64,000 bases of DNA from an uncultured bacterium (GTDB lineage Bacteria; Babelota; Babeliae; Babelales; Vermiphilaceae). The stretch covers positions 1,120,001-1,184,000 of the forward strand of contig OY968764.1 of NCBI GenBank assembly GCA_963695335.1, written 5' to 3'. Made by a program: the position numbers. Of this stretch, positions 42,001-48,000 are shown piece after piece (the stretch's first letter is position 1; each line of letters starts with the position of its first letter).

Positions 42001-45000
42001 ACTGCGTCAAATCGCTCTGGAAAACAATTTTGCAATTACCGTCTCATCGTATGGAAAAGTTAAAACCGTTGCGCAAATGGCATGCTTAGCCTTTATAATC
42101 GCTAATCCATACCACGCACATCTTTTTACTGCTTTATATTGGAATGGAACTGAACTGCTCTTATTAATTATAGGCACTGCCTTATCAATCGGCAGCGCCT
42201 ACAATTATTTCTCTGTTTTTATGGAACAATACAATAATAATTAGTTCACGATAAATACCAAAAGAACTGTGTGACGCAATCAATTACATCTCGCGGAATT
42301 TTATATAAAAAATGCTCAGATTGCTTTTCATATACATCATGATGCACGCCATACAACTGCACTATTTTATCCGTTACGCCACATGCACGCATCAACAACA
42401 GTTTATACCAATTAAACTCAAAATCTGTTTCTATAACCAATTCTATTCGCTTATATGTATCTTCTTTTTGCTGTTTTAAATATTCAAAAATTGATGCTAC
42501 AGCAACTGATACTGCTTTTCCTTTGGGAAAGGCTACTGGCATATCAACCGTTCCCAACGTAGGCAATGCTATACTTTTTTCATCTTTCGCATCATATAGA
42601 TGAATTTTATTAAGAACAATTTCATAACATTGAGCCAAATCTTTAAATAGTTGTTGCATGCCCTTATCACCAGACATTTGAAATGTTGTGTACAGCTTTC
42701 TTTTGTTATCTACATAATAATAACTATGTATTGCTTTTTTATTTTGATTATCCTTTTTAAAAAAGCTCAACCTACTTTTTATTTTATCAACATGTAAGTT
42801 TCCTGTTTTGCTTTTGCTAACATAATAAAATAACCGATCATCTTTGCCCTTCATAGCATATGGTTCTTGAATAGCAACAACCTGACCTACCACACGCTCA
42901 CTCACAATCTTCTCTGGATCAAAAATCTCATCAGCAGACTTTTTATACGAATAAATAGAATGTCCTCTATAAAAATAATTACCAACCTCTTGTTGATACG
43001 GATTAAATGTTCTTTTGCTTAATACTGTTTGTTGATTTTCCCCCACAATCATAACACTCACGTTCAATATCGGGTAAACATCACACAAATAACCTTTAAT
43101 AAGATTAATTTTGGTACCATGCGCTGTAATGCTCCACTTATTTTCTTTTTCCATTGCATGACTAGATATCATAAAAATAGATGCTAGAATGAATATATTT
43201 TTTGTCATAAGTTCTGCAACCTTGGTAATGTTATATTAATTTTGCAATATAACTGATCAACTCATACGGCAATAATGCAAAAATATTCTCAGAATCTTTT
43301 TGTGCAAAATAGAGAAGTAACACATTTTCTTTACCTCTCCATTGCATCAACAACTCTTTGTAATGATTAAAATCAGCCATCTCTTCCATAAACAATTCAA
43401 CATTATCATACGCCTTTGAATTATTTTTTATACATTCAAGAACAGCATTTACTGCAATTGAAATAACATCTTCTTTAAACATACGCGCATGCTCATAGTG
43501 AGAATCTGCACCCAACATTGGCAAAGCTATATTCTTAATCTCTTTTTCTTTTAATAATTCTATGCCTTTATTCAATACAGTGTTATAACAACGCAATAAA
43601 TCCTTACGACTCTCTTGAATCGCTAACTCTTTTGTATAACATTCACTATCTGCATACCAATATTGTGCAGCCCCACTAGAAAGGTTAAAAACTCGAGGCT
43701 CTGTAACAACTAAAAATTTTATATCTTCTCGAATTGGGAAATACCAATCATGTAATAGAAGTTTTTGATAATGAATACTATCTTTTTTTGGCCTAAACGT
43801 AACTGTTTGCTGCTCACAACAATATCCTAGCAGATTGCTTGCCATCGGAACCACACCAAGCTCTTCTTGTTTATATTGCCCCACGCAAATAACAACATCT
43901 TCTTTTTTTCTATCATCAGCATAATATTCCAATATATCCGCTTGATGCAGATTAATTTTGGTACCATATGCTGTAATACTCCACTTATTTTCTTTTTCCA
44001 TCGCATGCACAAATACAGTAAAAATGAATGCAACGATAAATATCTTTTTTTTCATAAAAACTCTGCAACCTTGGTAATGTTATATTAAATTTGCTATATA
44101 ACTGATCAACTCACACGGCAATGACGAAAGTAAATGTTCAGAATCTTTGTGCGCAAAATAAAAAAGTAACACATTTTTTTCTGTATTTATCCATTGTATC
44201 AACAACTTTTTATACAAATTAAAATCTGCATCTTCTTCCATGAACAACTGAATTGTATCATAAAAATTTGGTTTATTTTTTATATATGTAAGAATGGCAT
44301 CTACAGCAATTGGAACTGCTTTGTCTTCTGGAATCCCCCAAAGATCATACTCAGAATCCGCGCCTAACATTGGCAAAGCTATATTTTTACTCTTTTTTTC
44401 TTTCAACAATATTGTGGCGTGATCCAAAGCAGCATTATAACAAAATAATAAATCGTCACAGCTTTTGCGTATTGTCAATTTACCTATATGGAAGTTTTTA
44501 TCAAAACCCAAACTTTCAACACTTCTAAAGAAAGAAAATGTACATAGATGCGGCTCTGTAACACATAAAAAACAGATACCTTCTCGAGGGTGCAGTTGCC
44601 AACCTTCTGAATAAGCTCTTTGATAATTAAGGCTACCTTTTTTTGGTGTAAATCGAACTGTCCTCTGCACATAACAATCTCCTACTGAATTACTTTTACA
44701 TGGAATCGCGCCAAGCTCTTCTTGTTTATATTTCCCCACGCAAACAACAACATCTTCTTTTTTTCTATCATCAGCATAATATTCCAATATATCCGCTTGA
44801 TGCAGATTAATTTTGGTACCATATGCTGTAATACTCCACTTATTTTCTTTTTCCATCGCATGCACAAATACAGTAAAAATGAATGCAACGATAAATATCT
44901 TTTTTTTCATAAAAACTCTGCAAACCTTGGTAATGTTATATTAAATTTGCTATATAACTGATCAACTCACACGGCAATGACGAAAGTAAATGTTCAGAAT

Positions 45001-48000
45001 CTTTTTGCGCAAAATAAAGAAGCAACACATTTTCTTTACCCCTCCATTGCATCAACAACTCTTTGTACAAATCAAATCCACAATTTTGTTCTACAAATAA
45101 CTCTATACAATTATACGCTCCTATATTGTTTTTTATAAATTCAAGAATGGATGCTGCCGCAATAGGTGCTGCTTTTTCTCGTGGAAAACCAACCTGATCA
45201 TGTGATACTAAATTAAGATCAGCACTTAATGCTAACAATCCTATACTTTTTTCCTCTTTATTTCCTAATCTTTCCAGTCCCTCTTTTAAAACAATTTCAT
45301 AACAGAAACTCAAATCTTTAGATGCCTCCTGAAGTGCCATATCTGCATAAAATTCCACTCTCTGAATACAATCTTCCTCAACCAATTTTCCTTTTTTTTC
45401 ATAACAATATCTTATTGTCTCGTCACTATATTGACCATTTATATATACAGAACAATGAGCAACCCATGGTTCTGCTATACTAAAAACATTACTCACAGTA
45501 CTGCTTAAGCTAAATAATTGTAATCCATCATCATCACGTGGCATGGGTGCTAAAAGTATATCATCCTCTCCCTTATCGTTTCGTCTCGATATGCTACAAA
45601 TGTTACGTGATCCTGCACTCTTATTATATCCCACAACCATTACATCAACATTCACTTGTCTTTTATCATATGAATCTTTCGTGAGATTAATTTTTGTACC
45701 ATATACTGTAATACTCCATTGATTTTCTTTTTCCATTGCATGCATCTGCATTGCAAAACATATCATCAACATCACAATGTTCTTTTTCATCGCAAATCCT
45801 TTATATAAAAAAAGTGAGTTGCATGCCTTTTGAATACAAGGCACACAACCCACATAGTATACTGGAATAACAATTATTTTTCAGCAGCACTTTTTTTCTA
45901 AAAGTTCTTTGTATAATGCAAATTCAGACTGTTTTTCTACAAATAACTCTATACGATCATACGCATTCGGACTGTTTTTAATAAACTCCAAAATAGTAGT
46001 TATTGTACGTTGTGCAGCTTTACTCTCCAAATTATTACTGTCTGGAAAATGCGATTTATAAGACCCAACAGTTAAAGCTGGTAATGCTATGCTTCTTGCC
46101 ACCTTTTCATTTTTTTCTAGTATCGCTTTTGTAAAAACATCTGTATAACACAAATTTAAGTCTTTTAATGCTTCTCCAACCACTTCATCAACAGAATGAG
46201 AACCATCTCTGTTAAAAAGCTTTGCGTGATACAACTTATATCCAGGTGTATATCTTTCATAAAATACATCAAGACTAGTGCTTACACTAACGTAAGGCGC
46301 TTTAACTTCTACCAGTTTGTCTTTATTGATAAGCAAAAAACGATTACGTGCCAACTGATTAGGATCTGTTTCTTTTGGTTTTTCATATTTTTTCACAACG
46401 ATAACATCTGCCTTTTTGCCATCATTACTATCGAGTATATTCCCTTGATACAAATTAATTTTTGTATTACCAACGGTTATGCTCCAATTCTTTTCATTCT
46501 CCATGCCTTGTATACACGCTGCAGATAACATTATCGCAACCACCACCAATTTCTTCATCCATCATCCTTTGAGGTTAAAGTGAAAAACAGGGGGCTTAAA
46601 AGCCCCCGCTTCGCTTTTTAAGATATATTCTACTGATTTCGGATGTATTCTCGTATGCGATCTTCGTTTACCTGACCACTTGTTTCTGCAAAATACCCAT
46701 CTGACCAAAAACTTTTACCCCACAAAAACTCTTTTAATTCTGGAAATTCTTCGCGCACAACTTTACTGGTCATTCCTTTAAACAATTGTACCATCCTGCT
46801 CACGCTTACATCTGGATTCATTTGAACTAACATATGAACATGATCTAATTGAATGTTTAGCTCTTCTATTTTCCATCTTTGCAAATCTGCGCATTCATAC
46901 AATAGATCTTTTATTCTTTCTGCTATCTCTCCTTTTAATACTCTCTTTCTATATTTTGGAATCCATACTAAATGATACATAAGTCTGTGCTTTGTTTGAG
47001 ATCCACACCAATATTTACCCATGTTTTTTAGTATGCCTAAAGAGCCGGCTCTTCGCAATTACTATAACTGCATTGCTCCATCGCCTCCATTTTGACTCGC
47101 ATTCATCCCTGGCTTTGAAAAGCCAGGGTTTTCTGCTCAATTAAATAAACAATATACGCACTTTTTATACAATACATTGTAAGTATTGGCAAGCAATCTT
47201 TCGAATTTATATAAAAAAATGATACTCTTTAAAAAAGAACAATCGTATTCGTTTTCAATAATCAAAAAATTAATCTTTTTGAGGATATAATGACTTTAAC
47301 ACATGATGGAATTGATGAAACTATAAAACAAAAAATTATAGCTATAATTTCAGCACTTGTGCCTGATGCAACAATTTATTTATTTGGATCACGCTCACGT
47401 GGCACTCAATCAAAATGGTCGGATATCGATATAGCACTTGATTCCGGACATCCTATCTCACGATTTGTTCTTGGTGAACTTATGAGCGTTTTTGAAGCAA
47501 CTGACATATTGTACAAAATCCAAGTTGTTGATATTAATTCTGTTAATGAAGCAATGAAAACATCAATTTTAAGAGATCGCGTATTATGGAAAAAATAAGA
47601 GATCGTTACGACATTACCATACAAACATTATCAACATTAAAAGAAGTCTTAGATGAATATGATGCAGGCTTTCCAGAAAAATACATACTTATCTTTCATG
47701 ATTCAATAATTCAACGATTTGAATACTCAATAGATACTTTTTGGAAATTTTTAAAACTCTATCTTCAAGAACAGCTCAAAATAGCTCTGGAATCAAATGC
47801 TCCACGTGCAATCATCAGAGAAGCGGCTAATGCCAACCTTATATCAGAAGAAGAAGCCTCTATTTTACTGAAGTGTATTACAAGCCGTAATGAAACATCT
47901 CATACTTATAATGAATTTTTAGCAGAACAAGTAGTTAAGAGTGTCCCTGAATATTATAAAATTATGCACAAAATTATGAAAAACATACCCATCTCACAAT

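Follow-up and report, generated by a model that had tools for sequence, protein, structure and literature searches.

Methionine-glutamate behind the signal peptide of effector-like proteins in a Babelota genome

Met, usually as Met-Glu (ME), stands directly behind the predicted signal peptide of more than 150 secreted effector-like proteins of a bacterium from a protist-dwelling Babelota lineage. Its envelope proteins do not show the pattern, which reappears in unrelated, intracellular Alphaproteobacteria, suggesting that host-bound proteins carry an address or stability label not described before; we infer the function of the mark, and both the cleavage before Met and the destination of the ME proteins are predicted from sequence.

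The motif was counted in a set of 1360 independent gene calls. ME occurred at residues 15-36 of 145 of these proteins versus 30.5 expected; the reverse dipeptide, EM, was found there in 28, and ME in later windows in 36, 26 and 22. The excess reported in the initial annotation was thus borne out and is wider than first stated, the strict set comprising 151 ME proteins. Signal peptides were called by a rule blind to the motif; it picked out 689 proteins, of which 563 have no transmembrane segment further on, and missed at least five further ME proteins. As claimed earlier, unrelated families share the motif: the strict set falls into 82 sequence clusters, 64 of which are singletons, so the excess does not stem from just a few sets of paralogues. 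The ME proteins have the traits of Sec/signal peptidase I substrates, namely a basic n-region and hydrophobic h-region, with small residues at -3 and -1. Their logo (n = 151) matched that of the initial annotation: L31, T29, I26, V19, S16, A12, M12, C4 and N2 at -3; H39 and F20 at -2; A54, G28, C28, S25, T10, P5 and N1 at -1; K41, P21 and L20 at +3; and E72 at +4. Thus, A, G, C, S or T occupied -1 in 145/151 and L, T, I, V, S, A or C occupied -3 in 137/151, the five Pro and one Asn at -1 being breaks of the usual cleavage rule. Prediction blind to +1 and +2 recovered the cleavage site in 128/151.

Five such genes form a minus-strand array at 42246-46558 of the window, the 64-kb stretch of DNA analysed here. 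All five start with a basic n-region and a hydrophobic h-region and have ME at residues 19-20. The description of all five as HA/MEKENKW (slash, predicted cut) held for three; one reads HA/MEKENQW and one QG/MENEKNW. The features of the array are as follows:

42246-43208, minus strand: array gene 5, 320 aa, signal peptide and Met-Glu, diverged macrodomain fold (family model), F-box-like tail by eye only
43149-43208, minus strand: gene 5 signal peptide (43155-43208) and Met-Glu codons (43149-43154)
43231-44055, minus strand: array gene 4, 274 aa, signal peptide and Met-Glu, predicted macrodomain fold, C-terminal LPxELI helix
43996-44055, minus strand: gene 4 signal peptide and Met-Glu codons (43996-44001)
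44080-44910, minus strand: array gene 3, 276 aa, the modelled protein, predicted macrodomain fold, C-terminal LPxELI helix
44851-44910, minus strand: gene 3 signal peptide and Met-Glu codons (44851-44856)
44083-44121, minus strand: gene 3 C-terminal F-box-like LPxELIxxI helix (regular expression; below the F-box profile cut-off)
43234-43272 and 44939-44977, minus strand: equivalents of this helix in genes 4 and 2 (regular expression)
44936-45790, minus strand: array gene 2, 284 aa from the signal-peptide ATG, HA/MEKENQW, C-terminal LPxELI helix
45731-45790, minus strand: gene 2 signal peptide and Met-Glu codons (45731-45736)
45881-46558, minus strand: array gene 1, 225 aa, QG/MENEKNW, macrodomain-like, without the C-terminal helix
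46499-46558, minus strand: gene 1 signal peptide and Met-Glu codons (46499-46504)

Gene 2 has an additional GTG upstream, at 45853; its signal-peptide start is 45790. The array products are five proteins with a predicted, diverged macrodomain fold, four with an F-box-like end helix. The fold model of gene 3 (pLDDT 78.3) matched an Oceanobacillus macrodomain in Foldseek (E 1.6e-6), and hhalign placed gene 3 with the genome's own Macro protein (probability 95.2); the match of gene 4 to Pfam Macro (E 0.095) was below the cut-off. In MacroD-type ADP-ribose hydrolases, the ligand loops are NAAN and a glycine-rich stretch. NAAN and GGG are present in the genome's own Macro protein (L056:9885-10523) and are replaced in the alignment of the array family. 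The array shares the macrodomain fold and differs from the macrodomain family in these loops and in having a signal peptide and F-box-like tail. ME was present in 15/15 rows of the family alignment that span the site, with variable flanking residues; protein P0007 starts M-E-N and P0008 lacks the region. ESM Atlas searches with the N-terminus and with the tail gave no usable match for either.

The window holds five further ME genes and one variant:

3811-4116, minus strand: Met-Glu gene, 101 aa, no Pfam family
6799-7743, plus strand: Met-Glu gene, nucleotidyl transferase with signal peptide
7746-8951, minus strand: Met-Glu gene, ankyrin-repeat protein
26832-27920, plus strand: Met-Glu gene, HIT/CwfJ-like protein
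35524-36165, plus strand: Met-Glu gene, 213 aa, no Pfam family
55662-62003, plus strand: Met-at-+1 variant (A/MN), 2113-aa protein, weak Sel1 match

The distribution of the motif among signal-peptide proteins supports its association with effector-like Sec cargo and not with envelope proteins. ME was found in 28/48 repeat proteins (ankyrin, WD40 or LRR) versus 0/42 envelope proteins (p 1.4e-10), "envelope" being our own label, which takes in some membrane-anchored proteins. By class, the share was 17/30 for ankyrin proteins, 11/17 for WD40-like proteins, 116/386 for proteins without a Pfam family and 7/54 for enzymes; this table leaves out 671 proteins without a signal peptide, 117 with later transmembrane segments and 16 short ones. 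Pfam scans were run at 1e-6 for the ME and Met sets and at 1e-9 for most other proteins, so weak ankyrin or WD40 proteins in the non-ME set were possibly missed. At sites predicted blind to +1 and +2, Met occupied +1 in 31/37 repeat proteins versus 2/15 envelope proteins, one of the two being a pilin false call. One HtrA paralogue has C/MQ at its predicted site. The proposal that ME marks effector-like proteins stands as a class contrast, but not all plausible host-acting cargo carries it: 47/54 enzymes are without ME, among them a second PP2C and a second lysophospholipase that are paralogues of ME proteins. Within the family list proposed earlier, the PP2C was recovered; no NUDIX protein was found at E ≤ 1e-6, and a HIT/CwfJ protein was seen instead.

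The ME cargo looks cytosolic. An F-box-like motif (LPxE[IL]xxxI) lies near a terminus of 22/151 ME proteins versus 4/284 other signal-peptide proteins (p 1e-7); one of the 22 matches, in an enzyme, is probably due to chance. The best Pfam F-box-like score was 22.9 bits (cut-off 24.3), and the best F-box match in the PDB was FBXL5 (E 1.3). A second, exported thymidylate kinase is present beside the cytoplasmic one; among exported copies with a readable start, three of four have ME and one does not.

The actual rule is broader: Met at +1 with a bulky residue behind it at +2, Met-Glu being the commonest form. Met occupies +1 in 216 proteins; among the residues at +2 are Glu (141), Lys (18) and Asp (12). 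Small +2 residues occurred in 10 of the 75 non-Glu proteins versus 39% expected (p 2e-6). Among 24 signal-peptide paralogues outside the strict set, tallied by eye from 30 rows, Met was kept in 15 (5 ME, 10 M-x) and lost in 9. The Glu codons of the motif (127 GAA, 24 GAG) follow genome usage (82% GAA), so selection acts on the protein and a DNA-level element is ruled out.

The type II-like parts in the genome are two secretins with T2SSG, two T2SSE ATPases, T2SSF (180.7 bits), T2SSC (31.6 bits) and PilM_2. These make up a type II secretion gene set, part of which may be a type IV pilus. TolC, VirB10 and FlhA/SctV had no match in this 94%-complete genome, and the type II-like machine is the only outer-membrane secretion machine found.

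The initial annotation gave the motif as weak or absent in more distant Babelota. It extends beyond close relatives: it was seen in tiles of the Babelota families f2, f8 and f19 and in three alphaproteobacterial orders, the seed genomes of which have ATP/ADP translocases; it was not seen in small tiles of families f4, f6, f10 and f15. NuoN was used as the taxonomy marker, and the lineage tally leaves out G125 and G127. A further non-Babelota case, G126, was dropped, as its family holds two genomes with the match coordinates of Babelota f7 genomes. The alphaproteobacterial carriers are Sel1-repeat and orphan proteins. A secretin was present in 5/5 genomes tested (four alphaproteobacterial, one Babelota), the alphaproteobacterial one being only 23% identical to that tested in this Babelota genome. 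Control tiles comprised 10 regions; in free-living ones the motif occurred in 0/3 and 0/1 signal peptides, too few to count, so that this tile control is weak and the class-wide pattern search is the main control.

The best reading, which we hold tentatively, is that ME proteins are cargo for the host and that their mature ends imitate a stable N-terminus of eukaryotic type. They would be exported by Sec and, judging from the -3/-1 pattern, cut before Met by the single signal peptidase I. For the step across the outer membrane, the candidates are vesicles and the type II-like secretin machine, the search for secretion machines having yielded no other. Once in the host cytosol, such a protein would start like an ordinary eukaryotic one: the bulky residue 2 would protect Met from removal, and the N-degron system would encounter no exposed Glu, Asp, Lys, Arg, Asn or Gln end. 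These are the degron ends given in one review, according to whose account small residues after Met permit its removal by Met aminopeptidase and ends made by signal peptidase can destabilise proteins in the cytoplasm (PMC8037982). Envelope proteins, which show no such bias, would never contact the N-degron system, and the N-terminal cassette would have spread by duplication and fusion to new domains. The class contrast, the blind Met +1 contrast, the avoidance of small +2 residues, the cytosolic-looking cargo, selection at the protein level, the constancy of ME in the macrodomain family and its recurrence in Alphaproteobacteria with a divergent secretin all argue for a stable host-like end. N-degron avoidance leaves unexplained the preference for Glu over Asp and Lys, Glu at +4 and His at -2. 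Also against it are the enzymes without ME, which, where +1 is not Met, show no excess of stabilising residues there (10/31 versus 37% background), the F-box scores below cut-off, the Pro and Asn at -1, and the reliance on predicted cleavage and localisation.

A close rival, possible if somewhat doubtful, is that the mature Met-Glu-x-Glu is an export address by which effectors are sorted from residents in the periplasm, its reader being a chaperone, a vesicle-loading factor or the type II-like machine itself. The strong Glu preference at +2 and +4 is what a specific reader would favour. Also in support are the GspC/D/D/E/F/G-like and PilM-like parts and the secretin in every genome tested; with no other machine matched, some 150-220 effector-like proteins have to use a single exit in common with the Sec route of the envelope proteins. 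However, 65/216 Met +1 sites have a bulky or other non-small, non-Glu residue at +2, which is loose for a receptor, and many plausible secreted enzymes, nine of the 24 paralogues and one exported thymidylate kinase have no Met. Type II cargo is not generally known to carry linear signals, which also counts against an address. The enzymes without ME weigh against a host-like end as well. Somewhat doubtful too is the further proposal that Met-Glu-x-Glu serves as the linear address of a route in two steps (Sec and type II-like) by which hundreds of effectors enter the eukaryotic cytosol, and at the same time makes them host-like; this would be a bacterial equivalent of PEXEL export that Babelota and protist-endosymbiotic Alphaproteobacteria evolved or share.

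The remaining explanations are less probable still. Inheritance without function, in which a cassette of signal peptide and ME spread by duplication and terminal reassortment and Met is partly the relic start codon of genes joined to a signal peptide, is improbable. It would account for the near-identical signal peptides on neighbouring WD40 and ankyrin genes (5/7 such cross-family pairs within 10 kb), for the ME neighbours of 79/151 ME genes and for one relative, in which the Met of the exported thymidylate kinase aligns with the start Met of a cytosolic copy (L234 versus L237). In this genome, however, the kinase's ME sits five residues upstream of the Met that matches the cytosolic start. 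Moreover, ME persists although signal peptides of different clusters are on average only 14% identical, the motif occurs in two phyla, Met is retained where Glu is lost, a relic Met would not shun small +2 residues, and the macrodomain alignment suggests slower loss of Met +1 than of neighbouring positions. It is very unlikely that the bias is a general one, with the lineage's peptidase cutting best before Met and acidic residues aiding translocation: Glu at +2 is not tied to Met (SE at 14 of the 231 non-ME sites) and Thr and Pro are tolerated at -1, but the sole signal peptidase I also serves the envelope proteins, of which 0/42 have ME. A dedicated second peptidase was ruled out, the enzyme being single-copy here and in G002. 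Finally, we give almost no credence to the ME ATG being a second start codon, for a cytoplasmic isoform, or to Cys at -1 marking lipoproteins. Gene callers sometimes begin at this ATG (e.g. P0010), but a Shine-Dalgarno-like site precedes 107/151 signal-peptide starts and 0/151 ME ATGs, versus 358/6667 control internal ATGs; and although Cys occupies -1 in 28/151, 0/28 of these sites fit a lipobox.

A two-residue mark would provide a rule to predict effectors among hundreds of orphan proteins of uncultured endosymbionts. It bears on a Babelota genome in which markers of type I, III and IV secretion were not found, although it encodes ankyrin, WD40 and F-box-like proteins by the dozen. Export address versus host-stability mimic is a sharp question for a single substitution, and the presence of the mark in another phylum suggests that Sec-exported effectors are under a general constraint in protist hosts.

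The SVM signal of phytoplasmas ends in Ala-Met. Against this genome, its profile (PF12113) scored at best 16.4 bits, with 0/4 matches above the 22.4-bit cut-off; the best weak match ends at the +1 Met. As outlined in PMC8026896, SVM is likewise a Sec signal common to many effectors of an intracellular bacterium; it is one homologous signal-peptide family of wall-less bacteria, whereas the signal peptides here are non-homologous. Elsewhere, C. destructans has signal peptides on 44% of its proteins and 78% of its ankyrins (PMC6561590).

Under the Q-rule of Bacteroidetes, about 71% of all signal peptidase I substrates have Gln at +1, which a periplasmic enzyme cyclises and which is reported to stabilise exported proteins, in the accounts of PMC5837995 and PMC10653852. 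Both systems fix a residue lineage-wide after signal peptidase I; in this genome, that residue is Met with a bulky neighbour, limited to effector-like cargo and missing from envelope proteins, and Gln was at +1 in only 8/231 non-ME predicted sites. The Bacteroidetes lipoprotein export signal, given as K-(D/E)2 or Q-A-(D/E)2 in PMC5080379, is similarly a short, acidic, position-dependent motif just behind the signal peptide, and routes proteins across the outer membrane; it belongs to lipoproteins and signal peptidase II, whereas the motif here starts with Met and is without a lipobox. Plasmodium PEXEL export uses a eukaryotic ER route and plasmepsin V, with no linear signal found in the mature end, and homology is not implied. 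In common with the mark proposed here, an intracellular parasite separates host-exported from resident proteins by the mature N-terminus, an end that signal peptidase can make (PMC10653839).

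The Met-Glu sequence directly behind the signal peptide is a real, strong, protein-level signature. It occurred within residues 15-36 of 145 of the 1360 predicted proteins, against 30.5 expected, 28 for the reversed Glu-Met and 22-36 for Met-Glu in later windows, and peaked at residues 18-25. A motif-blind signal-peptide rule flagged 689 proteins; in 151 of these, the strict set, Met-Glu directly followed the uncharged stretch. With the Met as position +1, the residues at -1 were A54 G28 C28 S25 T10 P5 N1, those at -3 were mostly L, T, I, V, S or A, and position +4 was Glu in 72/151. 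In leave-one-out trials, a matrix restricted to positions -13 to -1 recovered the cut at the Met for 128 of 151 proteins. By blastp, the strict set formed 82 clusters, and signal peptides from different clusters shared a mean identity of 14%. The genome has a single copy of signal peptidase I.

The reading of the Met-Glu ATG as a second start codon was rejected: a Shine-Dalgarno-like site preceded it in 0/151 genes. Such a site lay upstream of the signal-peptide start in 107/151 genes and of control internal ATGs in 358/6667. The choice of Glu codon matched genome usage. Similarly, the strict set could not be read as lipoproteins, as a lipobox was present at 0/28 Cys sites.

Genes were called on the single contig (1,366,684 bp, 35.7% GC; the window spans 1,120,001-1,184,000) using a dicodon model and Shine-Dalgarno scoring. 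SecD apparently lies in two ORFs (window 39904-41458), and Lon, DnaK, RpoC and PNPase likewise appear as fragments. These split genes suggest some frameshift errors in the assembly, so gene and protein counts are approximate. The phylum name Babelota, given in the initial annotation that reported the motif, fits the gene content as well as the presence of motif matches in records titled Dependentiae and Babeliales.

Protein classes were assigned using Pfam scans of 150 + 126 proteins at a threshold of 1e-6 and 148 + 132 proteins at 1e-9, excluding 23 falsely called cytosolic proteins and 16 short ones from the counts. Among proteins with a signal peptide, Met-Glu was found in 17/30 ankyrin, 11/17 WD40-like, 0/1 LRR and 0/3 TPR proteins, and in 116/386 without a Pfam family. 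It occurred in 0/42 envelope proteins, a set including BamA, TamA/B, TolB, OmpH, OmpA, both secretins, PBPs, binding proteins and HtrA (repeat versus envelope proteins, p 1.4e-10). The F-box-like motif LPxE[IL]xxxI lay near a terminus in 22/151 Met-Glu proteins versus 4/284 other signal-peptide proteins; profile tests gave no confirmation of its F-box identity. Seven of 54 enzymes carried Met-Glu: a thymidylate kinase, PP2C, GH3, a methyltransferase, a lysophospholipase, a nucleotidyl transferase and a HIT protein. The thymidylate kinase is a second copy, the genome also encoding a cytoplasmic one. Two copies were present in three of 40 relatives examined; the readable exported copies had Met-Glu in relatives G006 and G306 and lacked it in G087.

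Other signal-peptide proteins were observed at the following loci (G000, this genome, contig C1; L numbers, sequence regions):
G000:C1:229487-231971 (= L012:17856-18722, L013:31-1656), adjoining OMP decarboxylase and dihydroorotate dehydrogenase
L056:3054-4883 and L041:8787-10730, proteins whose C-terminal domains are Ntox21 and CdiA-CT RNase A, without Met at +1
L073 (genome G002, C13:460001-480000), six-gene tandem array, all with signal peptide and Met-Glu followed at once by a classical-looking F-box start
The OMP decarboxylase and dihydroorotate dehydrogenase, with the exported thymidylate kinase and MIOX, MutS_V, AAA and GNAT proteins, suggest export of metabolic enzymes. The Ntox21 and CdiA-CT RNase A proteins may be antibacterial rather than host-directed.

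The Met-Glu locus in the window is an array of tandem paralogues, flanked by the third and fourth entries below:
42246-46558 (-), five genes, each with signal peptide and Met-Glu
43214-43240, 44062-44088 and 44918-44944, repeated junctions between array genes
46630-47058 (-), presumably an IS200-like transposase ORF, named from motifs
47290-48002 (+), presumably a nucleotidyltransferase/HEPN-like pair, named from motifs
48601-48750, recurring translated sequence, also near 322085 and 14990 of the contig
The last suggests a dispersed repeat element, as the same short translated stretches turn up within or ahead of genes that are unrelated (DNA ligase, secretin, upstream of a HIT gene). The array junctions are near-identical, and the first ~55 codons of two neighbours are almost exactly alike; we offer recent duplication or conversion as the cause. 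A homologue search returned 12 proteins, three from this genome, and Met-Glu was retained in 15/15 aligned family members spanning the site. The AlphaFold model of an array protein (pLDDT 78.3) matched macrodomains with a best E of 1.6e-6 and a query-based TM of about 0.45, and the family profile matched the Macro protein of this genome with prob 95.2. The array proteins are probably non-catalytic because the ligand-loop motifs are replaced. An F-box-like C-terminal helix was found in four of the five, three by regex and one by eye; such proteins could plausibly serve a host ubiquitin ligase as substrate adaptors.

Met-Glu is part of a wider rule. With sites predicted blind, 216 proteins had Met at +1, followed by E141 K18 D12 L9 R7 Q7 A5 and some rarer residues; of the 75 cases other than Glu, 10 had a small residue at +2, versus 39% expected. 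By our reading of the rows, 30 paralogues outside the strict set comprised 24 with a signal peptide, 15 of which kept the Met, and six fragments or cytosolic proteins. Ser-Glu stood at 14 of the 231 sites without Met-Glu, two of them in ankyrin proteins; this minor class may represent another version of the rule.

The DNA pattern Met-Lys-Lys...Ala-Met-Glu was present in 53/121 genomes and 11/16 families of the phylum. Counted from table and coordinates, there were 142 matches, 124 in frame; the reversed control gave 6. In tiles of individual genomes, Met+1 was found in 4/24 (G005), 8/23 (G120), 1/22 (G003), 6/21 (G001), 6/29 (G085), 6/28 (G318) and 1/9 (G009) proteins, in 10/38 for G002, whose tiles were partly picked near motif matches, and in 0/6 (G008), 0/11 (G010), 0/14 (G041) and 0/10 (G114). 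Genome G126 (L104), titled 'uncultured Pseudomonadota', shares its family with Babelota genomes.

Scanning the whole collection gave 47 loci, of which 22 were in frame, and pointed to alphaproteobacterial records, whose motif cargo is Sel1-repeat and orphan proteins. One, G124, has six in-frame matches and two ATP/ADP translocases; NuoN on its contig bearing two matches was closest to PDB 8qby, presumably a Paracoccus entry, then to plant mitochondrial Nad2. By our count, the order of G124 had 25 in-frame signal-peptide-type matches in 9/27 genomes (control 0), with 7 in 4/8 genomes for the order of G121 and 3 in 2/18 for that of G122 (titled Holosporaceae); the seed genomes were picked via the motif itself and related genomes are not independent. 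A class-wide sample of 150 other genomes gave only 7 by our count. Free-living Planococcus and Pelagibacteraceae had single matches each.

What the data show directly is the motif itself, where it sits, which protein classes it favours and how widely it is spread; the proteins would be cleaved before the Met, exported and destined for the host cytosol. Met-Glu is a substrate for NatB acetylation. Host-stability mimicry is a possible function, which we hold tentatively: the Met would be kept against Met aminopeptidase since small +2 residues are avoided, and a mature Met-bulky end would escape N-degron turnover in the host. The basis for this fit is PMC8037982. The enzymes count against a simple picture, as Met-Glu is absent from 47/54 and the +1 residues of those without it show no stabilising bias (stabilising in 10/31 versus 37%). 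That Met-Glu is instead an export address read by a specific reader is rather doubtful, but the excess of Glu over Asp at +2 suits such a reader better and keeps this rival close. Shuffling of the signal peptide and Met-Glu as a cassette is visible in the genome; it accounts for the spread of Met-Glu but leaves its persistence without account.

Candidate exit machinery comprises two secretins together with two T2SSE-type ATPases and proteins resembling GspC/F/G and PilM; family searches of this genome found no TolC, VirB10 or FlhA/SctV. These type II-like parts agree with a report of a core type II system in TM6 (PMC4776705). Outer-membrane vesicles were observed in C. destructans (PMC6561590). 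No description of Met-Glu was found in the literature searched, most subscription journals and supplements being outside its reach. Specifically, in the portions available, 'motif' does not occur in the C. destructans paper or the diplonemid endosymbiont preprint (10.1101/719211), 'signal peptide' in the TM6 comparative paper, or 'secret' and 'effector' in the 2025 Babelota paper (PMC12172432). Membership tests of the Met-Glu proteins failed for three known systems, namely the Q-rule, the lipoprotein export signal and the phytoplasma SVM signal; together with PEXEL mature ends, these are the kinds nearest to Met-Glu.
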